From: Marsupella aquatica
Lineage: Eukaryota > Plantae > Marchantiophyta
Length of the DNA: 64,000 nucleotides
Assembly: GCA_973895155.1 (NCBI GenBank)
Contig: OZ316897.1
Coordinates: forward strand, 2,495,416 to 2,559,415
Direction: 5' to 3'
The notes under the pieces are model-generated. The model saw nothing but the letters and a program-made list of their open reading frames with translations, was not told the DNA's origin and did not search any database. How positions within the stretch are numbered: the first letter of the stretch is position 1; each line of letters starts with the position of its first letter. The position numbers and the translations under genes are program-made. Below are positions 6,001-53,049 of the stretch, piece by piece.

Positions 6001-7864
6001 GAAACAGGAAAACAACGGATCAACATCACCGTGCACAAGTCCAATTTTTATTTTTCTATAAAAAAAGAAGGTTCAACTCTTCAAGATTCTTCCAAGTCGC
6101 CGAAAATTTGGGTTCCATTTCCAAACTTCATTCAATGGCCTACCACTAAAAGTTAAAAGGACATGTGAAGCTAATGGTAGAAGGAGGCCCATGAACTGAT
6201 GAACCTCCATAAAGTAGTTAAACTAGACAATATTAATGAAAGTGCGACAAAAGCTCCATAAAGTGCACAAGACAGAGGCTTGGAAGGTGTAAACTTCCAC
6301 TTTTGCACACGTTGACAGCTGAGATTTCAGCAGCTCGAAATTCTTGTCTAAAAGGTACAGTCTGGGTTGAGCCCGTGAGGTAATCTTTTGTTCACAGTTC
6401 ACACGCTGGATGCATGGAATCTCGAAGGGCTCTGTCATGAGCCACGTCCACTGGTTTCGCAACTTACTGTAGATCGGCACTTGAGAAGTCGGCTTCACAA
6501 TTTGCGGGATTGTCGGGAATTTTTTGGGATGGGAATTCATCAATGTCACGTCGCCATGCAACTATTGTATCGTCAGCGACGTTTTCGGGAGAGAGAACAC
6601 AATATCGCGAGAGAATGTTTGAAGAGGATTCGGACAGCAATGTCATATATGTAAGGCAGAACAAAGGCGAGAGGTGGAGCAGCCCTCTAGCTACAGTGCT
6701 TGACTGGAACAAAGCAGCTTGTTCAGGGACCTGATAGTATGTTTGCATTTGGATTCGGTGAGCATACACGGCGGATTATTGTCGCGAAAATTGCAAATAC
6801 TCAATCGAGAAGAGGGCAGGCGAAGCCCCCTAAATAGCAAGCGACAATCTGCTTAGATGATTTTAAAGGATTCTTCTCCCACAGAGAGTGGTTCATGAAC
6901 GTCCCGTCGATTCGTCACAAACCAACAAGATCCTCGGGTCCTGAGGACAACCTGTTGGATTAGGTACGGGTTGTGCAGAGGAGAGAGTGGTAAATTTTCA
7001 GGTGAGCATTCAGTGCCAGTCCTTAGAGCTCATTAGTACAGTGGTTTACAGCTGATTTTGGCAACCAAACAAGTCAGTAATCCCGGCGAAGTCGTTTGCA
7101 AGAAACCCATCTGCTGTTGAACACAATTAGCCTTGCTTGCTGAAAGAATACCCCTTCTATACGCACCTGTGGTGGCTTACTCAAGTGCACACCTTAACTT
7201 GCTTTGCTGAAACTAGCCAATTCATATATCTCGCTTGACTACTGTTGCCCTTCCATCCTGCCAGAGTCCTCTATTGGCTTCTTGCCATGAAAACCGACAA
7301 GATTTCCCCTCGTATTCTAAGCTTCCCTCCTCTTGCCCGGCTTGAGAGTCCGAATCTATGCTACGTAGATCGCTCCTCCCTGCAGCAACATCAATCTCAA
7401 AATCCAAAGACTCCGAGCCTCAGGATTAGCACTGTCGAATCACAGTGGAAGAAAGTCGGTCGGATGCATACTTGCTGTTTGAGAGTGTTCACAGGTGCAG
7501 TTTCAGTTGAACCCTGTGAAATCGATTTTCTCTCGACCCAAGCTGAAGAAAATCACAGCCTCTCGAAGAAAGGGCTGCCCTGCGCTCCTGCTCTCGCTTG
7601 AAATCGTCCACACCTGTTTTGGTCGCCCCAACAACTTGTCCAAAAGCAGCTGCAGTCAGTATGAACGCACACTATACTTGCCACGTTGTTCGGAACGGGA
7701 AACCATTTTAGCGCAGGTTCTGGTGTCTCAGGAAACGTGCGTTTATGGGAAAAGAAATCTGGGCGTGAACCCGGCCTTAGGAGCATTTGCCTCGGCCCAC
7801 AGACTTGCTACACTGGAAGAAGCAAGAGTTCCCCAAAGAAATTTTATTTCCACTGTGAACTCCG

Positions 7865-10358
7865 TCAAAAAAACGGCAGCTGTTTGGCAATTGTGGCGAC
7901 ATCTGAGCCAGATTCTGATGGCTTTCTTTCTTCATCTGGATCGTCTGATTCTTTGGCACTCTCCGATTCCACAAGCAAATTCCGATGGAGCTGCTGGTTC
8001 CCCCATGCGAGAAACTTCAAGCTGGACTCAACCTCGGTAACAGGCGGCGGCTTGTGAGATGGCCGAGGCAAGAAAAGGCTCGTAGTCCCTGTCGGCGGGT
8101 AGTTGTGGCCGAATATGGGTCTCAACTCCCTCAAGGTGTCGAGGACTTCTTTGATGGAGGGCCTTGCGTCAGGATCCATGCGCACGCACTGCAATGCTAA
8201 GAGGGCCACTTTCTTCCACTGCTTGAGGTCAAGTGGAGCCCCCGTCTGAATCAAATATGGCTCGAACAACTCGCTCAACCGATGGGTCTTCACTCTGGAG
8301 ATGGCGAGTGCAGCAAGCGTGAGCTTGTTTCTGGGCCGGCGGGGCTCCACCACCTGCATCCCGGATACGAGCTCGAGCAGGATCACCCCAAAACTGTACA
8401 CATCGCTCTTCATTGTGAGGTCGTAGTTCACAAGATAATAAGGATCCACATACCCTGGCGTGCCCACAGCGAGAGCGCTGAAGTTGCTAGAGTCGGTCGG
8501 TAAGCTCCTCGAGATGCCGAAACCAGCAAGTTTGGCAGAGAAGTACTCATCCAGGAGTACATGGGTTGATTTGACATCTCTATGAATGCTATGTAGAGTG
8601 CCATGAAGATGTGTGAGGGCCTGGGCTATTTCAATCGCTATTTTCATTCGAGTTCCCCAGTTGAGCTTCAATCCTCGTAACCCATCCAAGTGTTCCCTCA
8701 GGTTGCCGTTGGGGAGAAACTCATAAACTAGAACGGGGTCTTGAAAACCCAATGACCAGCCGATGAGCCTCAACACATGGGGGTGTCTGAATTGAGAGAT
8801 GATACCCACTTCCGCGTTGATAATGGAAAGCAACTCTCGGCTCACAAGCCTGAGTCTCTTGACGGCCACTGGACGGGAGAAATCTGGTAAATTGCCTCTG
8901 TATACGGTACCAAAGCCGCCTTCTCCAATCACGTTCGTGGCTGAGTAGAATCCGGTCGCTTTAGCCAGCTCCCGTTGAGAAAATCGAATTGCAGCCGTGG
9001 TTTGCCTCCAGTATCCTCTATACTCGTTTCGAAACCACGCCAAGTAGCATTCCACCTCTGCAACATTCCCCCCACCACACGGAGAGCACACCCCTCAAAT
9101 CTTACGAGAATGTAACTTTACTTTGGGGATCTTCAATTTGGAATCACTGTGTTTCTGTGCTTTAGTTTGGTATGGTGAGTAATGATCAATGTCGGAGATT
9201 CATTCCCTCAGTATCTTTTGGCAAACAAAATCAGGTGGACAAATCTTTAAACCAGTCTTGGTCACGATGTTTGAGCAGCTTTCTATGGGTCACTCCCCGT
9301 CTGAGCTAATCTCTTAGTCATGTGTCTTAGGAGGATCCCTATTGGACCTAAGGATGACCTTTCAACTTATTTTGTTATCTTGGCACCCTTTGTTGTCTAC
9401 GATATGTTCCTTCTCGGGCCAGTTGTGTCAAAGAACACCTCCCGGAGATTGAATTCCAGTCATTGGTCGACCACCTTCCATAGACCTACGGCACCTACTT
9501 CCAAACTAAGTATTCTGTAAAGGATTAGTTCTGCTGCTGGTGCTTCTAGTGGGATGATCACCTTCTGCTCAGGTATGTTGCAATTAAAGAAACGACAGAG
9601 GGCGGTTTTCAGTCTCCATTTAAAGTTTCACTTGCTCTCTGCAAAACTGCTAAAGCATGCAGATTGCAGGCCCAATTGGGTCAGATAGACTACAATTAGC
9701 TGCAGTAATGCAGCCGACCATGCAAGGTTCTTAGCAACTGAGGGATGCAGATTTGGTATCAGTACGGCCCCAGGAGCTCAGAAATAGTTCCTCAGAGAAT
9801 GACTCTCATTCTTTTGTGCAAGCTGCTGAGCCAGGGTATTAATGTTGAGATGACTGGCGATTTCTAGCAGTGCAATTCCAGCTTCAGGAACAAGAATACA
9901 AAGAGCCTGAGTAATAAGTTTAGGTTTATAGTTATGGCGAGTCGTGAACGAGAAGGCAGAATCAAGATACAGAAGGATATCAATGTGAAACAGTAGAGAT
10001 TACCTTGAGCGACCTGCAGATCGCTGGTGATGGTCCGTTGAAAGTATCTGCGAACGAAATCTTCCCAGGTGTGCCCCGCAGAGAATTGGCGTGCCCATGA
10101 GTAGTCGCAGTGTTGCATGTACTCCGAGGCAATCAACAAGGCGAGGTCGTCTGATAAGCCTTCCTGAGCGGCCCACCGACCAAAGCATTTAATCCAAGCA
10201 TCATTGACATCCTTAGATTCATTTCCCTGAGGTACGGGGACGAGAATCCTCGTCAGATGATCGGATTCCCTGGGACAATCGCTCAGCAGTATGTCAAGCC
10301 TCTCTCTCACGGTATCATCTATGTAGAACCGGGCTTGCTTGGGAGCGCTATGAGCCAT
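7865..10358 (-). CDS. Gag-capsid-like domain / RLK-Pelle pseudokinase fusion gene 1 (exons 10358-10004 and 9057-7865)
   Basis: Exon 1 encodes a Gag-like segment (VPVPQGNE..AW..F..WA..GLSDD..L..W....TWEDFVRRYFQR) and ends at the phase-1 donor CAAG|GTAATC. The phase-1 acceptor TTGCAG|AG at 9058/9057 joins it in frame to a WAK/LRK10L-like kinase (FSQREL, GEGGFG, VAVK, HRDVKSTH, KLAGFG, GTPGYVDP, KSDVYSFG). The DFG Asp is replaced by Gly. Confidence 0.8.
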
Positions 10359-11787
10359 GTTGCTGACCCAGGCTATCTGCTGACGTCAAGTACCATACAA
10401 CCTTGATGCATGACTGGTTGAAGTGGATTCCTCCACGCATGACAGTTCTCGATTGTCGACACTAGTCAATTGGGGAGAACCAACCATGGGAGGCAGTCTT
10501 AATTGTATAACACAAACGAGTCCCCGGGACTTGCAGCCTGTGCTGCCGAGTTGAATTGAACATCCAGAATGCTTATGCCGAACAACCATCATCACAAGAA
10601 GGGTGTCATCACTGTGATCGAAGTTGAGGCATTTAACAGCCTGACGTAAGAGGGTCCTTCTGTGCGAATCTCAGTCTCACGAAGTTCTCCTCCGATTAGC
10701 TGAAAATATATGTGAAGTCCGCATCCAATGTTTTGATCTGGTGATCATCATGATGGTGAGAGCGATCCCATGAATCGCTCTTATAGATGTACAGTAAGTC
10801 CCAACCTCCGGTGTAGGCGTTTCTATCTGTTGGATACGCTGAGTATAACTTAATGATCGAGTGGCTAGGTTTGTTATTCGGACGACGATCTATGAACAAG
10901 GATTTACGTCTGCATTCTGTTGGTGAAGTTCATAAAACCTTCCAGACAGGTTTGTACCTTAGCGGATGATCCTCACTAACTCAAACCTGTAGTTTTCCAA
11001 GCATCTGCTGAATTACAGGATTCGGCAGCAATCTCTGAAATCCATGGAAATAACTGGTGTTTCAATTATAATAACCAGCGAGAAGTCTAGCGGTGAGCTT
11101 GATGGGATTCCTGTGGACAACATCAACTCTTCATCTTCATAGAAGCAAGCTAGCTAGGTGAGCCCGCATCCAGTCGCCATGGCCACGCACCTTTAGCTCG
11201 GTTCAAGTACGATTTGAGAGTTCCTGGACAGCCTCCAAGAATTTAGTGAAGTCGACGACGGTTAAATTCACTTTCCATCATTGCCCAAAACTTCTGTATC
11301 CAAGAAATATTTCTCACAAACAACTTACTTCTATGATACGACGAAACGAGGCTCTTGCATTGCATGCATGCAAGAGACTGGTTTCCAAGGATGTTGAGCA
11401 TTTTGCTGCCAAAGTAGAAAGGGTTAGAGCAGGCATCTGGGCTCTCGAAAAGTGCATACTCAGAGCAATTGGGATCCTTCTGAAATATGGTTTTATTTGG
11501 CTGCTGGCCGTCCATATTGCAGACGAGCATGTCGATCCTTTGCCTGATCTTGTATCGATCAGCTTCGAGGGTATGTAATAAGTCGACGTCAATAATACAT
11601 GCAAGGGGATGGCCAGTGCATTATTTCACGAGTCTTGAATATATGAAGACGTGGTGCCTCTGAATTGCAAACGTGACGTCTTTCCACATTTACATTGCAA
11701 GATTGATTCAAGGACTCCTTCAGCTCCCGCAGAATTGGCACCGGCTGGCAGGTTGGCAACCACAGATGCATGGAAAGATCAGTTAAA

Positions 11788-14076
11788 TTAGTCTGGATCC
11801 CTTGGACTGATGATGGGACTCGGGTGCTCCCATTCCCAACCCAAGCGTCCTCTCTGATCTCCGACGAGATTCGTGTCTACCATCCACCTCCGGCGAGATC
11901 CAGATTCTCGGAAATTCTGCAGATAATCCGCCACTTCAGCAATGGAGGGTCTCCTTTCCAGATCGAAATCACAGCACCACACCGCCACATGCAGCATCCT
12001 TTCCAGAATCCCTGCACCGTAGATTTCTTCCGCTTTACCCGGAGGAATCGTATTGCCTGCACCGATGATCGAGTAAGGATGTGCTCCCCTCGTCCTGGAG
12101 ATGACCAGATCCACCAGGCACCTCTGCGATCTGGATGAATCCCACACCTTCATGAGCGTTACAAGCTCCATGAGCACCACGCCATAGCTGTACACATCCG
12201 TTTTATCATGGAGTATTCCAGTGTGCTTATAGACGGGGTCTACATACCCTTGACGATCGGCCAGAGGGCCGATCCTCTTGTCAGACTCGCTCTTGATCGC
12301 AACAGCCAAGCCCAAATCGTTGAGCTTAGCTCGCCAAGTCTCAGAGTAGACCAGAATGTTAGTAGATCTCACATCCCTGTGGAAGATTGGCCATCTCCCG
12401 TTGTAGTGGAGTTGAACCAGAGCGTTGGCCACATCAATGGCGACAGATAGACGAAATCTGGGATTGCTCTGGAGTTGATCGCCGTAGAGTCCCTCAATAT
12501 GGTGACGAAGATTGCCACCGATGAATTCCGAAACGAGGAGCGGGTTTCTCGCATTGCTGCAAAATCCTATCAAGCTGACGACGTCTGAATGGGTCGATTT
12601 CGTGATTTCTCGGCGGAGGCATACTTCGTCGAGGACCTTCTCCAGGTTCTCATTTTTCCTGACTCTGCGGGCCTTCACGGCGACTCTGTCGCTGCGACCT
12701 GAGAGTCGGGCCTCGTAGACGACACCCACAGAGCCTTCGCCCACCCGATTGCGGCCCGAGAACCCGTCTGTGGCTCGCTCCAACTCGCCGTATGAAAACC
12801 AAACCTTGGAAATATTCTTGGCGCAATCGTTATACCATTGCTCGAATTCTCCAGCTGCATTGCAACCGACATGGGTGGCACAATCTTCAGAACATGTCGG
12901 CAATCAGATATCTATTCACATGTACGATTCTTGATTTTAGTGAACAGGTCAATCATTCAGACTCTTGACCGATAAGAGTAATAATGTGTTTTCAACCCAT
13001 AACCAACTCATCCATCTCTAGCGGATGGAGACAAAGAGGAAGGTCAAACAACTCGTTGGAGAGGACAGACCCCGGCCGGCGATGGATTGGTGGATTGAAA
13101 TTTGATAATGAAGCTCTGGTCACACTTGTCCAGCGAAGAACGGCAGATCGCACCCTTGACCTTATGGACGGTTAATTCTGAGAAATTCTGGACATTCAGT
13201 TTTTCAAATCAATGCCTCTCCTGGCTGCTAATCCAATTATCCGAAATGAGAACCTGTTGCTGTGGAAGAAATTTGGACGAGCAATTGATGGTGGGAACCA
13301 AATGAAATTAATGGGAATCAGTGCAGGCATGCTCTGAATTCTGGAATGGATTCCGATTTTCATCATCCATGTCCAACTAAAGAAAACCTGGCTTGACCTC
13401 AAAATTCCTACACTGGTTTAATGTATCTTGTTGTAGAATTATGACTCGTGGTTCGGATGGTCCCAATGGCAATTCTCGTTACAAAGACAGACAAGGGTTT
13501 CATCAGATTGATTTGCCATTCCACCATCGGACTCACCAAAACTAAAGCAGATTGAAGGATAGGCTTGGGAAGCTTCAACTTCGAATTACTGAAGGGAAGG
13601 AGATCCATGCAAACGTTGGCGAGCTTCAGAAATTGGACCAACAACCGCACAATCGATGCATGTTCTGAATACTAAGGAACGGAAGGTCTGAAGAAAAGAA
13701 TTGTCATGCGCATAGCCTGATCAGAGCAGGGCAAAGAGCTACCGGATGGCAACCCGCCACATCCTGGAGGAATGTGGTGCCTCTGATAATAGTACTCGAC
13801 GTAGTCCTTCCACGTCTTGCAATCCATTTCAAGCGATGGCAAATTGAACGCCTTCTTGGTATACTCCTGGAGAAGTTGTTTCGTAAGATCATGGGAAAAG
13901 CCCATCTGTATCGCCCACAAACTCCAGAGTGTGAGGAATCTGACTGCAGCTTTCGGATCTTCGCATCCGGTATACTGAGGAATCACGATGTCACCCTTCT
14001 CCGCCCTCGGGATCAGAGGTAGCCCTGATATTGGCATGTCCCTCCGGACTGACTCGCTCAGCGCATAACGCGTCAT
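11788..14076 (-). CDS. Gag-capsid-like domain / RLK-Pelle kinase fusion gene 2 (exons ~14076-13743 and 12854-11788)
   Basis: Exon 1 (IVIPQYTGCED...W..WA..GFSHD...TWKDYVEYYYQR) ends at the weak phase-1 donor TCCG|GTAGCT. The phase-1 acceptor ATGCAG|CT is at 12855/12854. The kinase has GEGSVG, VAVK, HRDVRSTN, DLG, GYVDP and KTDVYSYG, so the catalytic Lys and both Asp residues are retained. Confidence 0.75.
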
Positions 14077-15736
14077 TGTTATCAACAGGCCTCGACGCAA
14101 GCTTTATACTGGATTCAATTTGCTTGCTCGTTAATGTCTCCCTCTTCTCCTGTAGATTTCCCGCTTTGCGAACTTTGGAGAATTGTACTCATAGGACGAG
14201 AATAGTGATGGTCTGGTCAAGCAACTTTTATGAATAAACAGACGAAAATCCCCCAGAATCGGCACAAGTGTTTTCTGTCGAGACCATTGTTGATTGGATG
14301 GACAGCCGAGCTCAATTCGGGGCTAATCCTTTCGGACAATCCTTAGCAGGATCCGTATTTTGAAAATTCAGGTTGCATTTGTAGGAATTTCAATCTACCA
14401 AAACTTGGAGGCAACGCGATCGATTCAAATCGTTTGCTCTTGTCGCGAGAACTGTGCAAGAGACTTCAATCCTCTGGTCGGGCGCTGCAGAATGACGACG
14501 GACCAGGGATGCGCTTAGCTGGGCAAGGTCGAAGGGGGCAGTGCAGGGCTCTGATCCTCGTGACCCTGCTTGCCCCCATCAGGTTAGGCGCCACCCTGAT
14601 TCAACGGTATGACCTAGATGGAAACAGCCAACGACCCGTGGAAAGCCGGTACGCAGTCTAATCAGGAGTGGAAACCGTGCAGGATGGAACCGAATTCGGA
14701 AGGCCAATTGCTCTCAAACAAGCTACAGGGACGGAATATTGCTAGTAGCCGAAGAGCGGATCTCATGGGAGATGAAATTATACGCACTAGACACCTTTTT
14801 GCCCTCAAGGGAACCTCAGAATAAAATGGCGAATGCGCGAGTGAGTCATGCATTCACACTCTTTACACAGAAGCTAAGGCACCAACGAGCTGTACAAGCG
14901 ACCCGTGAGAGATCTCACTGCTCTCACTAGTGTGTCCATCATAATTGTGCTAGGCGTCAATGTCCATCTTCGGCAACGGCTCGGTAACCTGATGTGGAGA
15001 ATGATGAAGCGAAGGCATAAACGGCGATTTTGCTGTGATCCCCTGAGATGATCACTCCATAGATACCGCTCTCAATATCACAACACGTTTTCTCCAATGA
15101 AACTATTTTACGGGGAACGACTTTGCTACAGGAGGTTGTACTGTAGTGAAGGTCGAGTAGAGACTAATACTAACATAACACAAGCTTTATCTCTAAATTT
15201 ATGAAATTGAATCTGGCTGGTTGACGAAATCGGGAGAGGTCACACTGCTGTCCCTGGGAGGGGTTTTACACATGGGGAGTTCAACCCATGGATAAAACTA
15301 ACTTGTGAAAGCTACGTGCTCATTCTGGGAATCGTGCCATGTTGGGAAAAAGTCTTCAGACTAGGAAACATTGCAGTGATCCATTGCAATGATACACAGC
15401 TGGATAATCTGCCTACTTAGGAATTGTCACAAGTCGGGACCGTCGACTTTATTTGACGTTCACACGAAACCAGTCAATGACGAAAATTTGACATCAATCA
15501 AGGACACAAACCAAGTTTATGCGGTCGGCAGCAAACCACTGCAGATTACTCATAAAGCACAGAGATGGAAACTTCTGAAATGCTTTGAAACCGAAATTTG
15601 ATTAATTGACTGGTTGCAGCGATGTTTGCTAACACCTCAACCTGCCAAAAATCTACACTAGCTTTACTTTGGTTGAGAGTGAAAATACTGAATACCTCCG
15701 CAACGTTCTGACCCTAGGCATTGACTAATAGCAGCA

Positions 15737-15960
15737 ATGGATCCCATCGGTCTGCCAAAATTTTATCCAGGGACCAATCACGACGGTGAAATATTCTTCC
15801 TATCGTTCCTAGGTGGTAGAAGAACTGACATCCATCCTCCTGGTGAATGGCGGATAACCTCTCTCGAGGCCCCTCCCCCGAGGCCTGGCATTGAGGGTGG
15901 CTGGCTAGCTGGCAGGCCCGAAGAGTTGGTACGCATTGAGATCTGACGCTTCAAGATTCA
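15737..15960 (+). pseudogene. possible degenerate retrotransposon Gag fragment
   Basis: MDPIGLPKFYPGTNHDGEIFFLSF resembles the Gag 'LPKF.G..D...FL..F' start. After a frameshift and a stop, LALRVAG*LAGPKSWY resembles 'L.G.A.SWY'. Confidence 0.3.
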
Positions 15961-17379
15961 AAAGCGTGCCGAAGCTCTTGGAGGTTGGAAAGGATGGGGC
16001 CCAGAAAGTCACTCTAAAGCAATGGTAGGAGGAGAAATCTGTCAAGTAGACAGGCGGTAGTGCCTATTTCTGCGCTAATTTCCTCGTGAGCTACATTGAC
16101 AGTCGCCTACTAGATGGACTGATTATTGTACATAGCCTTGCGGTTGATTACTGAACCATTTAGCAACTAGAATCACGGCGAGCCAGTTGGGGATATGTCT
16201 TATGCTTGATGGATACATCGATTGGGAGAAAGCACTAAGAGCCTCCAGCATCATGGAGGCAAGTGATCCCTTGTTCCTCCTGAGCGACTTCCTTTGGGTC
16301 TGAATCCAGTTGGCTTGCCTGCCTTTATGGGGAAGAGGGTGTTGAGGTGGAAGAAGAATGGCCTTCCTCTGTTTCCCGTCAGGATTCCAGTGGTTTTGGA
16401 TCCAACTCGAATGGCATCTCAAAGTCTTGATTCGCCTCTGCCCTCTTCAGCGTGCTCTTCCACTCGCCCTGGTACCGCTGGCAGAGTACTAGACTGTGCA
16501 AAGAAAGGCTCATCTACCGGGAAATCATCTCGAGTGAAATTCGACTGGCTCAATTTGTCGACCGTCATTCAGTTTACATCCCCTCGGTCCGAGTCTTCCC
16601 AGGAGCAGCAACTCTATCCGTCGGCCAACTCACTCGATTCCCACTCCCCTCCTGAAGTCTGTCAATGATCATCACCCGGAGCGGTCGGACGTTTCTCACA
16701 ATATCTTTCAATTACAGAGCAGAAGGGAAAGAAAGTATCAGTCCGACAGATAAATCATGAAAGCAATTCGTAGTGACTAACGCGGTGGCTTCGTAGATGC
16801 ACTGGCGCTAAGAATCGCGCTTCTGGCAGATCACACACCGCCTGCAAATTACAACTGCATGATTGTGGAGCATCGAGAGACATTGTTAGTTTCCCTAGAG
16901 GTAGTGTCCGGCCAATCGCTGTTGGATTAGGGACAATCAACCTACCCCCTCCTGAAATAATGTTTCAACCACAAGAATTGACGTGCATCTACTGAAGCAA
17001 GTAATAAGAGGAGTTGTAAAGATGATCTCCTACCCACAAAATTCTAGGACTCAAGTTGAGTAAGGGACTAGAAGCTCCATACCCCAAGCGTGCTGCCTCC
17101 AGAGACTTCACCTCAAGAAGCATTCATTCATTCATTTGTCAAGACCAAGCAATATATTGTTGTCTACTGGCTACAGAGATGATAACACGTCGTTGAGCAT
17201 TGTACCCACAGAAAAAGAAGGGTAGCTCCAAACCTCCAATACTTAGAGGAGAATCTGAGGAGTCAAGATTGACTGATCCCTTAGACAGCACGAGGACTGC
17301 GAACCAGAAAGAGACACAGGACACATTCATTCAACCATCCATTCACTGATCCGACCAGTCATTCATTCAGACATTGGTC

Positions 17380-20154
17380 ATGACGCGCGAACATTCTGTG
17401 TTTTACAACATCTTTGAGATCTTCTGCATGGGAGAGCACTTCGCTCTCTGCGATGCGGTCCGGGCGAGGCTTCGCAAGAGCCAGAACCGCTGCCTCTACC
17501 CCAGCCCTGCCAAGGACGACCTTGTGGTCCCCGTGCTCACAGGCGAGGAGCACAAGTCCAAGGTCGAAGCGTGGACGCGGAGCTACTTCTCGTGGGCAAT
17601 GCAGGAGCGTCTGTCGGATGACCAAGCTCTGCTGGTCGCTCTGGAGCATCTCGAAGGCAAGGCTCATGCGTGGGGGCGCTTGTTCAGCACCGGAGCATCG
17701 CTGGAGGACTTCATGTACGCTTTGTGCGAGGAATTCAAGGCTTTCTCCGGTGAAATCGACAGAGGAGAGGCTCACTCCCCGCGCGCCGAGAAAGTAATCC
17801 CGCAGATCAAACACGCGTTCGCTCAAGTAAGAGATCCCTCCATTCCTCGACTCTCCCTCGATCAATTGTTCTCACCATGTCCCGCTCAACTATGGTGAGC
17901 ATTGCCGCAACTCTTTGTACTTAAATTGGAAGACCTCTATTATGAGAAACGCTGCAGAGGGAGGATTCAATGAGAAATCTGTCATAGCTGAATGCTCTCC
18001 ACAGCCTAGGTGGGCAATTGCCAATCGGTCAGTACATTCTTGTCGTTAGAAAATATCAAGCCAATGCTCAATTAACTCAACACAAGAGGGTGACAATGCT
18101 CCCTCTGATGGGAACTCTCCTGGATGAAATAATCCTGCACATGAAACACGCCTTCGCTCATGTAGGAGATCCCTCCATTAATCCAGTCTCCCTCTCTATT
18201 GTACTCATCTATCTATCTATCTAAAATCCCGCCCAAGTATGCTGACGATACGACCACCACTTACGACGCACTTCTATCAAGGTGCTCAAAGCTCGAAGGA
18301 TCCATCGTAGATCTCTCTCTGATCAACAGCAGTAGATACTTGTGGGCTTAACAGAGGCTTGCCCCCTTAGAGTACATCCATGAATTTAGGTGTCATTATA
18401 ACATGCTCAATCCATCATCATAGATCTCTAATAGTGGGTACTAGTTCACTTCAACAAAAGGCTTGCCCCCTTGCCCCCTTCAATTAAAGGCCATCCTTGT
18501 TCCATTTGCAGACTTGGTTATTGCACTAGATGTAAATCATTAGCTTATCACACTATTGCCCTGATAGATTTTTGTCTACTTTTGACTTAGCCTGTTGGGA
18601 GAGGTTTGCATCCCACATGATTACTGGTGCTCACTCATGTCAATATGGCAAAGATTTCATCCTCGTAGGCTATTTTCTACTGCTCCTCCAGAGAGCTTCC
18701 CATGGCTGCTTGATAATTAAGCCTGTGTGGCAAGTTAGTTCGAACCATCACTGACTAGAGAAAGGGGGAAAGTTCAATTAGTAGTGCAGGGTTTTTTATC
18801 TGAAGTGGGAAACATGGTCCAATCTAAATACTAAGCCGGTAGTTGGGATAAATCCATCTGGGTGGTATAGAAAACGTGACTGAGCAGTAGAGAAGAGTGG
18901 ATCTCCGGATTCTGAGCGTCGTTCACAAAGTCTGGAGGACAGCATTAAGGATGTGTTTCTGATTTCTCCCTTGGAAACTAAGAGGAACCCTGCGACGTCA
19001 CTAGTGTTCCCAGCGTCTGGGGTGGTAAACTTGAATGATAAGGGAACCAAGGGCCAACCAGACTAAGAGAAATATAAATGAGAAGGTGCTTCATCTCTGC
19101 GAGAAAAAACCAAGTGACCAATCTAGTAGACGCTAGAAATGGATATCTGCACATGACGTGGGATTCTGACATCATCACTGATTGAATTGATTGAACTTTC
19201 AAACAGATGCAAGAGATCACGTGTGTGCGATTCTCCTACAGAGAATTGGCTTATGCTACGAACATTTTCTCAAGCAACAATCTGATCAAGGAGAATGAGA
19301 TTGGATGGTTATATCAAGGACGGCTGCCAGACAAGCGGCTGGTAGCCGTGAGAAGATTAAAAAAACCAGTCTGTTGCAGTGAAACGACAATTGAGCAGCT
19401 ACAAAGGGAAGTAAAGACCCTCTCTCTGATTAATCATCACAATCTAATCAGACTCCTGGGATGCTGTCTTGAGCCTGATGAGCCACTCCTTGTCTTTGAG
19501 TTTGAGCCAAGAGGTAACCTAGCACAGCATTTGCAAAGAGAGAAAGGTCGTGGATTAGACTGGGAAACAAGGTTTACTATAGCCCTCGAAGCAGCTGATG
19601 GGTTGTCTCACCTGCACCACGCCTGCACCCCTCCTTTGTTTCACAGAAATCTGAAATCTTCTAATATTCTTCTGGACGAGGACCTGAGACCGAAAATCAC
19701 AGGTTTTGGCATCTCCAAGTCCATGTTCGCTAAGGATTTTACACCATTGCCAGAATCAAAAATTGGTTACATTGATCCCAGCTATGCCCAGACTTACAGA
19801 TTCACAGAGAAAAGTGATGTCTATAGCTTCGGTGTGATTCTAATGGAGCTGGTGTCTAGCAAGAAAGTAGTGGACTTCAGCAGACCTGCCGGAGAGATCA
19901 CTCTTGCGGCTTTAGCTTTCACCAAGAAAAAACTTGGTTATACAGAATTCAAGGACCTGTTTGACCCACAGCTCAAAAATTTGGGAAAGACGTGCCTCTC
20001 TACAATACATGAAGTAGCACTACTGGCTCTCAAGTGCATGGCTCTGGATGGAGATGCCCGACCATCCATGAAAGAGGTTTCAGATCAGTTGCGCATGATT
20101 CAAGATAGGGAGGTCATCAGAACAAAGAGAGGTGACAGCGAATTCATGCAATAG
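17380..20154 (+). CDS. Gag-capsid-like domain / RLK-Pelle pseudokinase fusion gene 3 (exons 17380-17826 and 19207-20154)
   Basis: Exon 1 is the clearest Gag-like match (VPVLTGEE..VEAW...WA...LSDDQALLVALEHLEGKAHAW...SLEDFMYALCEEF). The strong phase-0 donor CAA|GTAAGA at 17826/17827 matches the phase-0 acceptor AAACAG|ATG at 19206/19207. The kinase lacks the Gly loop (IKENEIG), the VAIK Lys (VAVRR), the HRD Asp (HRN) and the DFG Asp (GFG). Confidence 0.82.
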
Positions 20155-30150: not shown

Positions 30151-33499
<3,349 letters not shown>

Positions 33500-42190: not shown

Positions 42191-42515
42191 TCTTCATTAG
42201 CCTTGCTTTGGCTATCATCTGAATGCTTGCAACAACCCCCAATCAAAATGACAACATGTCCACAATGACTCTTTGTCAGAAGTTACAACTTACATTTCCA
42301 CAATGACATCTGAGACGCAAAGGCAACACCTCCGTAACAACATGCTCACAACTACAACTATGCAATGCATGGGCATTGGGCTTGTCCACAATATAGTTTG
42401 TGATGGAAGTCTATCATTCATGACCTACTCCATATTGTGATGAGCCATAGTTTCCTTGGTACCAGAAAAATTTGATATTGAGGGCCATCTTGCTGTTGGG
42501 TATTTACTCTTACGT

Positions 42516-42658
42516 CTAGGTTAGGTATGACGTGGTTGGTACAACAACGTGGGTTGGTACAACTACGTGGTTAGGTACAACTACGTGATTAGGTACAACT
42601 ATGTGGTTAGGTACAACTACGTAATTAGGTACAACTATGTGGTTAGGTACAACTAAGT
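42516..42658 (+). repeat. 18-bp tandem array in LTR U3 (copied at ~48130-48272)
   Basis: About 7 copies of GTGGTTAGGTACAACTAC-like units. Confidence 0.88.
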
Positions 42659-43620
42659 TGCACACTATATCATAAGAGGCATGTGTGCTTGGAGAGGTAG
42701 AACCAAGGCTCATTGTTATGGAGCCACTTGAGAGATAGGGAGAGCTTACACTGTGGAGACTCGGTATAGCCGACGGGCTTAGAGTTCAGTAAAGCTCTCT
42801 TGTGTGTTCCCGTGGACGTAGCCTCAAGGAGGTGAACCACGTATCTCTTGTGTCGACTATTGTGCGTTGGATGGTTCATGGGCTTGCCGTTGCGATCGTC
42901 GTCTATGCTCAACAATTGGTATCAGAGCATGCTTGGGAGGTGACGTGTGTTCGTGACGGGATTTCATGACGGTTTTTCCAGCGTTGAGTGTTGGTGGATT
43001 TTCCAGAGTTCCATCGCATGGAACTTGGAGTTTATGGGCTCAACGGATAGATCAGGGCAAGAGCTTTCTAACGGTGTGAAGAAATCGTTGAACGGAGCTC
43101 GTGGTGCAGAGAGATCTAAGTTTTCGTCGTTCTGGATTTTGTGAAGAAAGTTGGCAATCAACTCGGAGGGAGAAGCGTCAAGTGTTTTGACTCAACGGAG
43201 AGATTGAGGCAAGACGATTGTTTTTGAGTCCGGGATTGGCTCTTTGATGCAAAGAGGAAGGCTAAGCAAAATCAATTACCTTGTTGGACTTGGTGACGGC
43301 ACCAAGTGCAATTGATCAACATTCGTTGTTGACAAGTGAGGTCGTAGCCATTGAAGTTGGCAATGCAGCGCACCAATCACATCGCAATTCCGACAACGGG
43401 TTGTACTTGGTATTTCGGTTATTCCCTGAGGTGGTCAAAACGGGGGAGTTTCCCAAGGTTTTACCCACCTCGACCGAAATTTGAATAACTTTTCCGTCAA
43501 ATTTCGATTTTGATTTTGGTTTTCAGTATTGGACTCCTAGCTTTGTGGGCTACGCGGCGGTGTTGAGTTTCGAGTTTTTTGAGAAGTTGTGAAAAACAAC
43601 ATTTTTTGTGACTTTCTCAT

Positions 43621-46600
43621 ATGAGTGATTCGGAGGAGTTTTTCGAAGACGTGGAACTTGAAGCACGAGGATCACCACGGAGGTTTCAGGGGCAGAGAGA
43701 GGAGCAGGAGGAAGAGCACGTGACACCGATACCATCACCGGTGCGGCGTGTGGTGGAGGAAGCAGTACTACTACCGGAGCTCACGGTAAAGAAGAAGATG
43801 GGGACTTTCAAGCTTGGGGGACCCAAGTATGAAGTGACAAAGTATGATGGGCGCTCTGACTACTTGCTATGGGAGAAGCAGGTGAAGGGAGTGCTTTATG
43901 CGTCAGGGATGGGCCAACTGCTGAGCCCTCGTGAAGACGATGTTGATGAGAAACAATGGGACCGCATGCAGGAGCAGGGAGTGTGGTGTGTTACACTCTA
44001 TCTCATGCCTCCCATCATCAAGCAGTTAGGTGCACATAAGGATTGCATGTCCTTGTTTGCGGAATTGCAGAGCAAGTATCACCGCAAGGAGTTGTCGAAC
44101 CGGCTCTACACTTCCTACAAACTGATGAGTTTCAGGATGAAGGAATCTGGTATGAAGTTGCAAGACCATGTGGATGCTTTCAACGACATGGTCGTTGACT
44201 TGGAAAACCTTGGGGAGACTTTGAATGATGAGACGAAGGCTCTGCAGCTTCTTAGTTCATTGCCTCCATCTTACCAGTCCCTATCACGAGTGTTGTTGCA
44301 TCGTGATAGGGATACCATTTCATACAATGACGTGGTAAGTTCTTTGCTTAGTGATGATCTTCAGCAGAAGATGCACATCACGTCACAGCCTTCATCATCT
44401 GGTGCTGCCCTCAATGTTAACCGTGGGAGGAGTATGCAGCGACCAACTGGGGACCGTAGAACCCAGTTTAGATCTAAATCCAGATCTAAGTCCAAGGGTA
44501 AATCCCCTCAGAGGAGGCAGGTGACATGTTGGAAGTGCAACCAAGTTGGACACTTCAAGCGAGACTGTAAGGGAAAGGCAGCGGAAACTTCATCGGCAAA
44601 TGTGGCTAGGGCTGATGGAGAAGCTGATTTACTCAATGATGAGTATGTTTTATGAAGCCGGGGGTATGCCCTGTGCACGTCATCTAGGAGAGCAGATGAT
44701 GTGTGGATTCTTGATTGTGCTTGCTCTTTTCATATTTGTTACATTCGTGAGTTTTTCAGTTCTTACTCTGTTTCAAACGGTTCAGTTCTGATGGGAAATG
44801 ATCACTCCTGTCAAATTGAGGGAATTGGGTCTGTGAAGATTCAAATGTTTGATGGCGCTGTGCGCACAGTGTCCGGAGTCAGGTATGTACCTGGCATGCG
44901 TAAGAATCTGATTTCACTCGGTGTGTTGGATTCAAATGGTCATCAATGGAGCGTTATTGATGGTGAACTTCAAGTCAGGTCGGGAGAGACAGTGATTTTG
45001 AAGGGGAGTAGACAAAAGAATTTGTATGTGTTATAGGGCAATACTGTATGTGGAGAGGCCAATGTAACCAAGTCTCACGAGGAGATGACTCAACTGTGGC
45101 ATTCACGGCTAGGCCACATGAGTGAGAAGGGTTTGGCTATCTTACGGAAGAATGGACTCATTTCTGATTTGCAATCTTGTAAATTAGAGTTTTGTGAGCA
45201 TTGCATTCTTGGAAAGCAGCATCGTCGTGCTTTTGGTGTTGGAACTCATCGTTCCAAAGCGGTTCTTGAGTACATACATAGTGACGTGTGGGGTCCATCC
45301 CCGACTCCCTCACACTCTGGAAAGTTGTACTATGTATCATTTATTGATGATTACTCAAGATTTGTGTGGATTTATTTCATGACGCATAAGTCTGATGTCT
45401 TGTCCATTTTTAAGAAGTGGAAGGCCCAGGTGGAGAATCAGACTGGAAACACGATCAAGTGTTTGGATACAAGGGTGAAGAGTCTGAGGTCAGACAACGG
45501 CGGGGAGTACACTTCAATGGAATTTGAAGAGTACTGTTCAGAACAGGGGATAACTCGCCATCTCACCACAGTTTATACTCCGCAGCAGAATGGTGTCGCT
45601 GAGAGGCTCAATCGGACACTGTTGGAGCGGTCACGGAGTATGTTGAGCCAATCAGGTTTACCACAAGAATTTTGGGCAGAAGCTGTCAATACCGTAGCTT
45701 ATTTGGTAAATCTTTCTCCTTCTAGTGCTATCAATTTCAAAACGCCATTTGAGATGCGCTATAAGCGGCAAGCAGACTATCATGGCTTGGTAATTTTTGG
45801 AAGTGATGCATATGCTCTCACACCAAAGCAAAATAGGACCAAGTTGGATCCTACCTCCAGGAAATGTGTTTTTCTTGGGTACCAGAGTGGTGTGAAAGCC
45901 TATAGGCTATGGGATCCTATTGCCTGTAAGCTCGTTGTCAGTAGGGATGTTTCCTTCAATGAATCCAGATTATTGAAGGAGGGGGAGAATACTCAGGTCT
46001 CCCGTACTGACAAAGGAAAATCTCCTATCCCGGATCTCGTTGAGGGGAAGATTGGTTATGAGGTGCATGACCGGAGAGAAGGAGTTGCTCCAATTATGGA
46101 GCTGGTTCCTATGCCAGAGGAACCAGAGGAGTTTGTTGATGCTGGTGAGCAACAAGTGGATGCTGTTGAGCTTCAAATTGTACCAGCACACGCAGATCAA
46201 CCAGAGTCATCGGCTAGAAGAACATCTGGTCGCACTGTACGCGCTCCATCAAGGTATGGACAGTGGGTTGATTCATCTCAACTGCAAGAGGATGATTTTA
46301 CAGCTGATGATGAGGGTGATGCGTTAATTTTGGAAGAAGGAGAACCTTCTTCATTTCATGAGGCAAGTGCTTCAAAAGAGAAGCAGAAGTGGACTGCAGC
46401 AATGCAAACGGAGATGCAGTCACTAAAGGACAACAAAACTTGGGAGCTTGTTAAGCTGCCTAAGGGTCAGCAAGTGGTGGACAGCAAGTGGATTTACAAG
46501 CTGAAGGATAATTCCATAGGAGGTGGATCGAAGGTCTACAAGGCTAGATTGGTAGCAAAGGGATTCACACAAGAGAAAGGTGTGGATTACAATGAGGTCT

Positions 46601-47916
46601 TCTCACCAGTTGCTAAGTACTCTACAATACGACTATTGTGTGTACTTGTTGTAATGTTTGGTCTGCTCCTAGATCAGATGGATGTTGTCACAGCTTTCCT
46701 CTATGGCACATTGGAAGAGGTGATCTTCATGAGACAACCGCTAGGTTTTGTGAAGAGAGGACAGGAGGAATTGGTTTGCAGATTGCTGAAATCCTTGTAT
46801 GGGTTGAAGCAGTCACCAAGACAGTGGAACAAGCGGTTTGACGATTGGATTCGGTCACAAGGTTTTCACAGAAGTGTATTTGACCCTTGTGTGTATTTGA
46901 AACCGGTGAAGAATGTTGTCTTTGGGTTCATTATTTTAGTACTTTATGTGGATGACATGCTAATTGCAGCCAAGGATAGGTCTGAGATTGTTAAGCTCAA
47001 GGCACTGCTTAGTGCAGAGTTTAAGATGAAGGACTTAGGGCCAGCTAAGAGGATTTTGGGTATGGAGATCACTAGGGACTTGGAGGCTGGCAAGCTATGG
47101 TTGACGCAGAGCAGTTATGCGAGGAAGGTAATTGCAAGGTTCAACATGGAGAATAGCAAGCCAGTAAGTACCCCGTTGGCTCCACACTTCAAGTTATCAT
47201 CAGCGTTCTGTCCTACGGATGACACAGAGAAGGGGTTGATGTCAAAGGTTCCATATGACAAGGCAGTGGGGAGTCTCATGTATTTGATGACTTGCACTAG
47301 ACCTGATCTTGCCATGGCTATGGGCAAGGTGAGCAGGTACATGTCGAATCCAGGGAAGGTACACTGGGAAGCAGTGAAGTGGATTATCAGGTACTTGAAG
47401 GGTACCGTGGATCATGGTCTTTTATTTGATGCGAATGCAAAGAATGCTAGATCATTGATTGGCTATGTAGATTCTGACTATGGACAAGATTTGGACCGAA
47501 GGAGATCAACAACAGGATACGTGTTCACACTTGGCGGTGGATGCATAAGTTGGAGGTCTACTTTGCAGAAGTGTATTGCTCAGTCTACTACAGAAGCGGA
47601 GTATGTTGCAGCTGCGGAAGCGATTTGGTTGGATAGACTTATCACTGAAATGGGATTGCCACAGGGGAATGTGAAGCTCCATTGTGATAGTCAAAGTGCG
47701 CTCCACCTTGCTGTGAACCAGGTGATGGACAGCAGAGTGAAGCACATTGACGTCAGGTACCATTTTATCAGGCAGGCTGTGTCTGATAATTTGTTTGAGC
47801 TAGTCAAGATTGATGGTAAACTCAACCCGGCTGACGCATTTACCAAAGTGATTCCTTTGGAGAGTTTCTCTAGACACCGTGACGTATTGCAGGTTTTGCA
47901 ATTGCATCACAAGTAG
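43621..47916 (+). pseudogene. copia gag-pol, single frame broken by two in-frame stops (44653-44655 TGA, 45034-45036 TAG)
   Basis: Contains the CCHC knuckle CWKCNQVGHFKRDC, protease WILDCACSFH, integrase HHCC with SDNGGEY, RT LYVDD and RNase H GYVDSD. Confidence 0.92.
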
Positions 47917-48588
47917 AGTTTTCTTAAACATTCATTGTAATTACTGATATATGCTCTTCCTCATTCCTATGTATTAGGCTACGGCTTAGTTCTGGTTTGC
48001 TCTAGTTAGAGAGGGAAACCGGTTTGGTTTCTGTCCAGAACTTCCCGCTGAGGGATCATATACATTGGCAGTATTACTCTCCCCTAGACCAGAGTCAAGG
48101 GGAAGATTGTTGGGTATTTACTCTTACGTCTAGGTTAGGTATGACGTGGTTGGTACAACAACGTGGGTTGGTACAACTACGTGGTTAGGTACAACTACGT
48201 GATTAGGTACAACTATGTGGTTAGGTACAACTACGTAATTAGGTACAACTATGTGGTTAGGTACAACTAAGTTGCACACTATATCATAAGAGGCATGTGT
48301 GCTTGGAGAGGTAGAACCAAGGCTCATTGTTATGGAGCCACTTGAGAGATAGGGAGAGCTTACACTGTGGAGACTCGGTATAGCCGACGGGCTTAGAGTT
48401 CAGTAAAGCTCTCTTGTGTGTTCCCGTGGACGTAGCCTCAAGGAGGTGAACCACGTATCTCTTGTGTCGACTATTGTGCGTTGGATGGTTCATGGGCTTG
48501 CCGTTGCGATCGTCGTCTATGCTCAACACTTGCATGTGGTGGCCTTGAGAAAATTGGCCCGTTAAGTGTTCAGGTGGCATCTTTGCAC

Positions 48589-49075
48589 TGTTAGGATTTA
48601 CTCTTAGGTCTAGAGTCATGACTGTACCGTAGTTAAGGCTAACCTTAGTCACAGACTTGGTTAGTTTAGTCATGTTGTGCACACTCCAATCTCCCCCTTG
48701 ACTCTGGTCTAGGGGAGGGTAAAGATTGCTACCAATATGATTGCTCAGCGGGTAGTTCTGGAAATAAAAACCAAACTGGTTTTTCCCTCTTTATACGAGA
48801 GTAGACCAGAACTAAGCCGTAGCCACTCTATAACCAAGCGGTGTTTGCTTGGAGAGTGGGAACTCAGGCTCATTGTTACGGAGCTAGTTGAGATATAGAG
48901 AGAGCTTGCGCTGTGGATGCTTGGTATGGCCGGTCGGCCTAGAGTGCAGTAAAGCTCATGTGTGTTCCCGTGGACGTAGCCTCATGTGGAGGTGAACCAC
49001 GTATCTCTCTGTGTCGACTATTGTGCATTGGATGGTTCATGGGCTTGCCGTTGCGATCGTCGTCTATGCTCAACA
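48589..49075 (+). mobile_element. solo LTR of a related copia family with an internal inverted insert
   Basis: Starts TGTTAGGATTTACTCTTAGGTCTAG, like the main LTR start, and ends GTCTATGCTCAACA. TSD TGCAC is at 48584-48588 and 49076-49080. Confidence 0.88.
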
Positions 49076-51160: not shown

Positions 51161-53049
51161 ACTTGTGTTTGCCTTGTGTCCCTTGTGTTTGCTCTCTTTT
51201 TTGTGCCTTGTGTTGCTAGCGAGGTTGCTAGGAAGAGGAATGTCCAGCGAATCACAACTAGGAGCAGACATCACTATCATTCCTTACACACCTGAAGATT
51301 TAGTCCAAGTGATCCTTGAAAACATAGAGAAAGAGTCATCACATTGTGTTAGGGATATTGAATTTTGTTTTTTGGTGTGCAGGTTAGGTGAAGAGAAGTT
51401 GCTTGTTGGACCATTTCGGATTTTGCAGGCAACTGAGAATACAGGGGAGGACGAAATAGTGGTAGAGTCAAAAGAAAAAACTTTTTTTATAGTGAAAACA
51501 ATTGACACTTATCCAACTTATCTTTTTGAACTGAATTCTTGTATTTGTAATACAGATTCACAGAAGCAGTTTCGAGAGTCTAGAAAACTCTGTGCAAAGT
51601 TAACATGGCTTCTTTAAAGCGAAAAGCAAGACTTACTGTGTAGGATAAGGAGGAAGCTTCTCTGGTTGACAGTGTTTTTGAATTGAGTATCACTGTGGGA
51701 TACCTGGGTTCTGATGTTCATAAAGATGAAATTCACAAGCTCCATAGTCTCATGCTTGATCATTGTGTGGCAGGTGTGATTGGGCTTGAGAGGGGAGAAT
51801 TGGAGAATCATCTCCATTTTCAGATGGTTGTTAGAGCCAGAACAAAATCCGCCAGGTCTTTTGGTTTTCTTGTGAGAAAGTATATGGGTTGGCATGGGGT
51901 GAAGAATATGAATCCTGTTGGTAAAGTTATGTGTAAATGTTTGACTAATAGACAATTACATACTTGGAAATGAATGATTGGTTATTGTTTGAAAGATTTA
52001 GGAGCTACCCATTTTGAGCAAGCATTGTTTAACATTATTGATCAAGAAGTGATTGCAGGAAAACAGTTACATTCTATTTTTGGCAGAGTAGATCTGAAGT
52101 CGAGAGTAACTCTCACAAACAAGAATGTAGTTGACAGAATGTATGTGTGGCACAAATATAGGTCATAGAGACCTTTGCATGCAACATTCATTTCAACATT
52201 AACAAAGATGGTGAAATCTGGGATCTTCATGCCTGCTGCAAGCTGGATTATTCCTTTAAATGGGCAAGGAATGGATAGGAAGAGAATGACTTGTCTTTGG
52301 AAATGTATTATTGATCCTATCAATGTATGCAGAGTTAATGTTGAAGAAGTTTTTCTTAGAAAAGCTTGGAGTGGTGGTTGTGGCAGATATTATTCTGAGT
52401 CAGCTGATGATGATGTACCTGAACTGAGCAGAGTGATTGAGGGATCTCCAACAAAGAGTTCTCTCAAGAAGTCCAAGGTGGAACCAAAATCTGTTCGTTT
52501 TGATGATATGTTTGCAGAAATCAAGGTCCCTGAGAAGGGAGTGACATTTGGTGATTCTTTGGGCAAATTTGTATCATTGGCAAACAGGCAGCCATTTCCT
52601 AACTGTAATTATTTCGAGACTATTGATGCATTGGCTGCAGAGCATTCTTCGGGGTCTAAGAAAGAAAAGGAGAAGATGACAAATACATACATAATTGTGT
52701 TATCTGATGATGAAGAGATAGAACCTGCACAAGTGTATATTGATGCAGGAAAAAAGAGCAAATTTAAAGGCCGCACAACACTCTTAAGAAAGAGCCTTTT
52801 CAAGGTCAAGACTGAGCCAGGATCCCCTCTAAGTGGATGCAATGGAGATGGCTAAAACTGAGTGTCAAGTAAGTAATACAGGACGTATTTATCATCTTTT
52901 ACTTAATGTTTATGATAGGGTAAGTTTATAGATGAGAGTGAGAGAATAAATAAACATATTCAATGTACAATTTTTTCTGTGTGGGAAGTGAATGGGAAGG
53001 AAAGAAGAGACGGGGGGGAGGCGGGTTACTCTGCCTGGAGGACTGTATA

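Follow-up and report, generated by a model that had tools for sequence, protein, structure and literature searches.

Three linked liverwort kinase genes with Gag-capsid-like first exons in Marsupella aquatica

The locus and its gene models

The window analysed here, a 64,000-nucleotide stretch of contig OZ316897.1 (positions 2,495,416 to 2,559,415, assembly GCA_973895155.1) of the liverwort Marsupella aquatica, carries three genes of what is apparently an ancient and undescribed family, in which a Gag-capsid lobe is fused to a kinase and which includes a conserved, co-regulated cluster. A sequence-only reading of this DNA had recognised the three kinase open reading frames (ORFs), which are indeed long and stop-free (gene 1, 7865-9094, minus strand; gene 2, 11788-12903, minus strand; gene 3, 19195-20154, plus strand), and had missed what is unusual here, the first exons with their Gag-capsid-like lobe. 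Each kinase ORF is a second exon that follows an upstream first exon and a single GT-AG intron, and a same-strand ORF of 140-180 codons lies upstream of each of the three. The spliced models of about 515, 466 and 464 aa for genes 1, 2 and 3 have junctions that agree with the orthologue proteins (Table 1); these junctions were placed by agreement with annotated orthologues and not by RNA of M. aquatica. Alternative acceptors at 9094 and 9016 for gene 1, and at 12885 and 12849 for gene 2, fitted the orthologues worse and were rejected.

Genes 2 and 3 are head-to-head. The divergence over about 3.3 kb stated in the sequence-only reading holds for the first-exon ATGs (14076 and 17380, 3303 nt between them) but not for the kinase exons, which are 6291 nt apart, and a Pfam scan of the four ORFs of at least 100 aa in the intergenic region gave no match. 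Gene 1 has a long C-terminal tail with no counterpart in its orthologues. The second ATG of gene 3 (17428) corresponds to the Marchantia and Riccia start, its intron contains a degenerate copy (82%) of the end of exon 1 with its donor (18127-18207), and its exon 2 starts with an ATG (19207-19209), so that a kinase-only product is possible; Mapa_001181 of Marchantia paleacea is annotated in this form. One DNA contig covers 7000-21000 without any difference, and since it may be the window's own source it is not independent.

Table 1. Exons, introns and intergenic region of the three-gene locus, in window positions
Feature	Coordinates	Strand	Remarks
Gene 1 exon 1: ATG and Gag-capsid-like lobe N1	10004..10358	-	Phase-1 donor at 10003; lobe 52-54% identical to the N-domains of Mp3g07350, Mapa_001180 and R1sor_006851
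Gene 1 intron (inferred)	9058..10003	-	946 nt, GT..AG; junction VAQ|EVECY, aligned to VAQDVKRY in Marchantia
Gene 1 exon 2: linker helix, RLK/Pelle kinase and long C-terminal tail	7865..9057	-	
Gene 2 exon 1: ATG and Gag-capsid-like lobe N2	13743..14076	-	Phase-1 donor at 13742; lobe 90% identical to Calypogeia fissa, 49% to Riccia fluitans
Gene 2 intron (inferred)	12855..13742	-	888 nt; junction GLPS|AGEF as in C. fissa CAM6097348 and CAM6128238
Gene 2 exon 2: atypical kinase	11788..12854	-	K, alphaC-E, HRD, N and DLG retained; HRD+2 Lys to Arg; P+1 Thr absent
Divergent intergenic region, genes 2/3	14077..17379	.	3303 nt
Gene 3 exon 1: Gag-capsid-like lobe N3 and linker	17380..17826	+	Phase-0 donor at 17827; lobe identity 93% with C. 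fissa, 64-65% with Marchantia and Riccia
Gene 3 intron (inferred)	17827..19206	+	1380 nt; junction HAFAQ|MQE in C. fissa and Marchantia, QAFAQ|MQD in Riccia
Gene 3 exon 2: conserved pseudokinase	19207..20154	+	Gly loop gone, VAVR, HRN, GFG at 19702-19704

A capsid-like lobe in the first exons

The domain encoded by each first exon is about 105 aa long, and its three copies (N1, N2 and N3) are homologous (blastp E-values from 1e-18 to 6e-4; 0 of 1000 shuffles reached the real score in any of the three pairs). Among 1304 six-frame pieces of the window, the family profile, which includes all three, matched strongly only N1, N2 and N3. A profile search of 1.84 billion representatives at E<=0.001, which misses members whose cluster representative has no such domain and leaves gene 3 orthologues unlisted, returned 22 matches: 7 liverwort proteins joining the N-domain to a kinase, 12 short ORFs with a single domain, and 3 long proteins of repetitive sequence (P0025, P0027 and P0032) put aside as likely chance matches. 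All the named matches are from liverworts, and the 12 short relatives carry no species name; half of the latter match Pfam Ty3_capsid or Retrotrans_gag below the cut-off (E from 6e-4 to 0.29). When a 15-sequence profile was compared with the PDB, dArc1 or dArc2 filled the first 4 of 10 rows, and the capsid N-lobe of dArc1 was matched over 77 gap-free positions with an E-value of 0.002. The AlphaFold2 (AF2) model of the domain (predicted local distance difference test, pLDDT, 71) has four helices and two short strands; when its fold was searched against 48,161 chains, capsid lobes of retroelements or retroviruses took every one of the first 13 rows, dArc1 being the best match (Z 7.6, root-mean-square deviation 3.0, 78 aligned), and Foldseek placed Gag capsid domains in 7 of its first 10 rows. 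ESM Atlas neighbours of two members belonged to DUF4939/FAM127, DUF7041 and Retrotrans_gag clusters (scores 0.86-0.92, few shared features), the rows of the ESM Atlas structure search all lying at TM<0.5.

A capsid origin has to be set against the Pfam scan, in which none of 8 core members matched a Gag family, against the lack of any Foldseek match to the AF2 model at E<=0.001, and against the fact that a fold-search Z under 8 may reflect a common helical arrangement. Each signal alone is modest, but four methods concur on a Gag capsid lobe, which is the likely identity of the domain. The lobe is single, with neither C-lobe nor zinc knuckle, and repeat and Pfam scans of the window found no long terminal repeat (LTR), long repeat or pol ORF around the three first exons; in lacking LTRs, second lobe, zinc knuckle and pol these exons differ from an intact LTR retrotransposon. 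Derivation from the Gag of the window's own Copia element was ruled out, there being no similarity. The first 165 aa of 6 proteins contain no hydrophobic stretch (maximum 19-residue Kyte-Doolittle hydropathy 1.09), so the gene products are predicted to be cytoplasmic, and no GUB_WAK_bind or EGF ectodomain was matched by Pfam in the family proteins scanned.

The closest known relatives, both by sequence profile and by fold, are Arc and dArc1-2, which are two-lobed and capsid-forming, whereas the liverwort domain is one lobe fused to a kinase, in a plant. A parallel in gene history is offered by SCAN of vertebrate zinc-finger proteins, one capsid lobe of Gag origin that was taken up as an exon, homo- and hetero-oligomerises and belongs to an expanding gene family; it was the C-terminal lobe that gave rise to SCAN, and the proteins carrying it are transcription factors, and we claim no sequence link between SCAN and the liverwort lobe. 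Animals and yeast are well known to have domesticated Gag capsids; a capsid lobe joined to a signalling kinase and retained across two liverwort classes did not turn up in our searches of print. The literature searched on these liverwort genes and on Gag-kinase fusions, judged from listings and abstract openings with few subscription papers covered, yielded no description, and gag or capsid did not occur in the passages of PMC11218826 examined.

Seven remoter single-lobe ORFs (P0023, P0024, P0026 and P0028-P0031) look more Gag-like, and all of them part after a W-x-G motif, as expected of first exons; of four that were looked up, two of these remoter ORFs were Logan-only. Metagenome scans for the domain gave 102 pattern matches and no confirmed case, and one locus (L001, one locus of 150 matches) was rejected for stops within the match and unrelated neighbours.

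Family history and catalytic states

A search with N3 for longer proteins found two matches among 217 candidates, both with N-domain and kinase, in Calypogeia fissa (94%) and Riccia sorocarpa (65%), and two more searches found Marchantia Mp3g07330, the gene 2 orthologues of C. fissa and the gene 1 orthologues Mp3g07350, R1sor_006851 and Mapa_001180. Full-length fusions occur in C. fissa, M. polymorpha, M. paleacea, R. sorocarpa and R. fluitans. Motif, identity and tree values given here come from alignments of the window models with annotated liverwort orthologues. Identity to C. fissa is 87-93%, which suggests a leafy liverwort near Calypogeia; in Marchantia and Riccia the kinase identity of the orthologues is 51-53% for gene 1 and 70-71% for gene 3, the latter across two liverwort classes that split some 400 million years ago. 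The paralogues themselves share 22-36% (N-domains) and 32-47% (kinases). At least seven paralogue lineages were recognised: genes 1-3, MARPO_0095s0007, Mp3g06070, Mp3g00080 and C. fissa CAM6097336/CAM6128242. The kinase tree (22 domains) and the N-domain tree (20 domains), midpoint-rooted without an outgroup and with a long-branch warning on the N tree, contain the same groups, {x7,(x6,g2)} and {x5,(x4,g1,g3)}, where x4-x7 are further paralogue lineages; Mp3g00080 is the sister of gene 2, which is nearer to this unlinked gene and to x7 than to its own neighbours.

In six of the seven lineages the lobe is followed by a phase-1 intron, observed or implied, gene 3 having instead a later phase-0 intron. 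The evidence includes exon-1 read-through ORFs which diverge from the full-length proteins at a Gly right after the lobe, and which imply an intron of the type of genes 1 and 2 clearly in three more lineages and less clearly in a fourth. Given this common intron position and the agreement of the N-domain and kinase trees, one ancient fusion is indicated, and the simplest reading would be that the exon was captured once, before the two liverwort classes diverged. That the lobe came from Gag and was joined once, as an ancestral exon, before duplication is a conclusion we hold with high confidence.

The genes have also stayed linked. By locus tags, Mp3g07350/07330 and R1sor_006851/006853 each flank one gene, Mapa_001181/001180 are the linked M. 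paleacea genes 3 and 1, and on two contigs of C. fissa the accessions of genes 2 and 3 follow one another directly. The gene between the Marchantia orthologues of genes 1 and 3, Mp3g07340, is annotated as WAKL9-like, as is Mp3g00080. In R. fluitans there are two gene 2 loci, R1flu_005881/005882 (annotated in two pieces) and R1flu_005892.

All three second exons match Pfam Pkinase (E 8e-37, 2e-27 and 1e-30 for genes 1, 2 and 3), and the 27 PDB matches of gene 2 at E<=1e-20, with CERK1 and FERONIA first and IRAK4 last, identify a kinase of the receptor-like kinase (RLK)/Pelle class. Source annotations read MpRLK-Pelle_WAK_LRK10L-1/-9, and the best matches are WAKL14, WAKL21 and WAKL9; unlike WAK/WAKL receptors, the liverwort proteins have no signal-peptide-like or transmembrane stretch and no GUB_WAK or EGF domain, and have the Gag-like lobe instead. 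The APE Glu is absent from 22 of 22 kinase sequences compared. The motifs reported by the sequence-only reading are all there in the aligned sequences. Gene 2 (GEGSVG, VAVK, HRDVRSTN, DLG) keeps Lys, alphaC-Glu, HRD, Asn and DLG in all four full-length sequences, including that of R. fluitans at 52% identity, and HRDVRSTN is likewise conserved among them; Arg at HRD+2 is reminiscent of Src-type tyrosine kinases. Gene 2 has no P+1 Thr and no Gly-loop Phe. Gene 1 (GEGGFG, VAVK, HRDVKSTH, GFG) retains Gly loop, Lys, alphaC-Glu and HRD and is without both Mg-binding residues, its catalytic-loop Asn being His and its DFG being GFG (8522-8524). Its lesions are lineage-specific: Asn to His and GFG in the window, a Gly-loop deletion and NFG in Marchantia, and in Riccia a Gly-loop deletion and HWD with K, E, D, N and DFG retained. 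Gene 3 (KENEIG, VAVR, HRNLKSSN, GFG) has lost Gly loop, VAIK Lys, HRD Asp and DFG Asp; in six of six sequences compared, Arg replaces the Lys and Asn or Arg replaces the HRD Asp, and the Marchantia and Riccia sequences retain DFG.

The same DFG-to-GFG change had been seen in genes 1 and 3, and both glycines are GGT codons. This does not reflect one event: the orthologues have DFG or NFG, and a single origin, which a phylogeny had been proposed to address, was rejected, as constraining the four kinases with GFG to one group lowers the log-likelihood by 80 units (approximately unbiased test, AU p=7e-40). GFG arose twice, to judge from these trees, and is on that account no common signature of genes 1 and 3. 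We found no sign of recent gene conversion around it (third-position identity 0.46 over 24 codons).

These data bear on the notion that genes 1 and 3 are decaying duplicates, or that the first exons are unrelated transposon debris. Gene 1 does sit on a long terminal branch with its lineage-specific lesions, and 6 of 9 listed changes in its tail relative to a related organism are non-synonymous; the frames are nevertheless open, annotated fusions exist in five species, the gene 3 kinase is conserved as given above, no long repeat lies near the three exons, and the Marchantia orthologues are differentially expressed in the portion of the expression data available (see below). Decay is largely refuted and retains a very small probability; that genes 1 and 3 are not dead is borne out by orthologues 51-53% and 70-71% identical whose Marchantia members are transcribed and co-induced with the middle gene. 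For gene 2, 20 of the 29 listed differences from the related organism were scored (9, from minor contigs, were dropped), 13 being synonymous and 7 non-synonymous, which gives among the differences listed a pN/pS of 0.16 (p=0.004, transition-only expectation). In runs X3 and X4 of this organism, contig depth at 7000-13000 is higher and identity lower over genes 1-2 than over gene 3, with several skipped-segment joints; an extra or diverged copy of genes 1-2 may be present, depth not being copy number.

Co-induction and possible roles of the cluster

Expression was taken from 39,917 rows of supplementary file 11 of PMC9946954, a part of that file, so that all counts are among the rows listed. 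Mp3g07330 is up in at least eight rows (C, CD, CL, CN, CS, H, HD and HM), Mp3g07350 in at least seven (C, CL, CN, CS, H, HD and HM) and Mp3g07340 in at least five (C, CL, CN, HD and HM), all five common to both neighbours, and none of the three is down. The three Marchantia genes are transcribed, and combinations with cold and heat induce them together. Mp3g00080 is up in at least four rows and Mp3g06070 down in at least three, under dark conditions. The supplements of PMC6174852 (1 file) and PMC11906373 (3 files) gave no match for the gene ids.

Upon the observed architecture, its conservation, the linkage, the motif states and the co-induction, we regard genes 1-3 as three members of an old liverwort RLK/Pelle family without transmembrane helix, with what is likely one lobe of a domesticated Ty3/gypsy Gag capsid in a separate first exon. 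The lobe would serve as an interaction module assembling the co-induced proteins into one complex, in which gene 3, and probably gene 1, would be a non-catalytic scaffold or switch and gene 2 would likely provide phosphorylation. Arc capsid lobes oligomerise or bind peptides, according to PMC9787330. A division of labour between pseudokinases and one executor, as earlier suggested, is plausible, since of the three only gene 2, in four of four full-length sequences, retains Lys, alphaC-Glu, HRD-Asp, Asn and D(L)G, but MARPO_0095s0007, with a fully canonical motif set and no linkage to the cluster, is by its sequence an equally good candidate for the executor kinase. Our preferred reading, held tentatively at somewhat less than even chances, is that the proteins would assemble physically by means of the capsid lobe, in a pathway of temperature or abiotic stress where catalysis falls to gene 2 or to this unlinked canonical paralogue.

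A number of points weigh against it. The splice models depend on orthologue annotation. The assignment of Mp3g07340 and R1sor_006852 as gene 2 orthologues is inferred from position and WAKL-type annotation; the M. paleacea tags of genes 1 and 3 are consecutive, with no gene annotated between them, and no C. fissa gene 1 orthologue was found in the orthologue searches, so that the full trio may be optional. Gene 2 may be weak or inactive, to judge from its missing P+1 Thr and Gly-loop Phe, and one X4 contig of the related organism has a one-base insertion at 12074 in its kinase exon; Riccia gene 1, with K, E, D, N and DFG retained, may conversely still be a live kinase. Thousands of genes are listed per stress condition, neighbour co-induction can stem from a shared promoter without any complex, and the four flanking gene ids, which have no row among those listed, may simply be silent. 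Structure prediction carries no weight either way: the full-length AF2 model of gene 2 was set aside (pLDDT 57, kinase N-lobe under 50), and a predicted complex of full-length C. fissa gene 3 and gene 2 scored 0.00 in two runs made without alignments and without folded controls.

The same family could be composed of proteins that act separately, their clustering being a tandem-duplication relic under common stress regulation and each lobe binding its own client, in the manner of peptide binding by the Arc N-lobe. Such independence accords with the high divergence of the paralogues, with the closeness of gene 2 to Mp3g00080 and x7, with the dispersal of other members in the genome and the different regulation of Mp3g06070 in three dark conditions (in the expression rows available), and with the predicted domain, whose model aligns to an Arc N-lobe/stargazin structure over residues 4-105 (Z 5.5). 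It does not account readily for linkage retained between two liverwort classes, for a co-induced Marchantia trio or for a pseudokinase conserved at 70% identity, which needs a partner through which to act, and we consider it rather unlikely.

It is also conceivable that the lobe serves as an integrated sensor or decoy: it would co-assemble with the Gag of LTR retrotransposons activated by stress, or bind Gag-handling factors, and the clustering thus brought about would trigger kinase signalling or block particle assembly. The lobe is single, and Ty1 p22 and Drt2, restriction factors by their PDB titles, are among the closest folds (second-best match, Z 6.9) and similarly are isolated capsid lobes retained by a host. 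Heat and cold activate plant LTR elements, the Marchantia genes are induced by both in the expression rows listed, and a young LTR element (99.8% LTR identity, 42494-48527) lies in the genome. The Ty1 factors, however, are C-terminal lobes, free of kinase and close to their target Gag. The lobes of genes 1 and 3 evolve slowly (52-65% identity between classes), unlike an arms-race sensor. The domain has no similarity to the Copia Gag of the window, and no close element Gag turned up among the 22 profile matches; for this last reason co-assembly with a present-day Gag is doubtful, and the proposal as a whole appears improbable to us. No more probable is a broader conjecture, in which the captured lobe replaced a receptor-kinase ectodomain and capsid proteins of retroelements or viruses are detected within the cell by the family, or provide the surface on which it nucleates, the pseudokinases setting a threshold and the catalytic member firing a stress or restriction response; if true, it would be a plant, kinase-coupled counterpart of the capsid-decoy restriction factors.

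A plant-immune sensor/executor set, in which pseudokinases decoy effectors and gene 2 executes, was the original suggestion, by analogy with ZED1/ZRK, cereal tandem kinases and paired nucleotide-binding leucine-rich-repeat (NLR) immune receptors. A pseudokinase does stand head-to-head with a putatively active kinase; the pairing of kinase and pseudokinase, and the combination of a cytoplasmic RLK/Pelle kinase with an extra domain, recall WTK1, Pm24 and sunflower RLK-2 and suit the kinase-fusion-protein resistance class, as set out in 10.64898/2026.02.12.705495; and some copy turnover is hinted at by the X3/X4 depth over genes 1-2 and by the two R. fluitans gene 2 loci. The parallel with tandem kinases and paired NLRs nonetheless fails, as there is one Pkinase stretch per polypeptide, on separate genes, and no NLR domain (NB-ARC or LRR) among the 76 window ORFs scanned. 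ZRKs are clustered pseudokinases of receptor-like cytoplasmic kinase type, without an N-terminal capsid-like domain, that act through the NLR ZAR1; the clustering is shared, but no NLR partner is evident among those 76 ORFs. The trio is old, low-copy and slow-evolving, with highly conserved one-to-one orthologues and no known resistance function, so that an effector-decoy role fits it poorly; the induction seen is abiotic, and GFG is homoplastic. This alternative we rate as marginally less probable than the capsid sensor.

The family adds a transposon-derived domain to the receptor-kinase repertoire and provides a natural series from canonical kinase to stable pseudokinase. It accounts for the unannotated N-terminus of at least four Marchantia genes (Mp3g07330, Mp3g07350, Mp3g06070 and Mp3g00080), the same account extending to MARPO_0095s0007 and probably to Mp3g07340, and since three members are adjacent in the tractable model Marchantia, the trio is testable by one deletion.

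Elsewhere in the window, the young LTR retrotransposon at 42494-48527 is of Copia type, with a 5-bp target duplication (CTTGC) and a gag-pol broken by in-frame stops at 44655 and 45036; it is followed by an 87% LTR-like piece (48842-49075). Replitron-like transposase pieces (51644-52855; Replitron_HUH and Replitron_C, both below the cut-off) precede a 143-bp tandem repeat at 53050-53479. At 32038-32969 a proteasome ATPase OB-domain exon (minus strand) adjoins a group II intron maturase fragment (plus strand), and a weak Aminotran_4 match at 62283-62642 (E 5e-4) is possibly a class IV aminotransferase exon.

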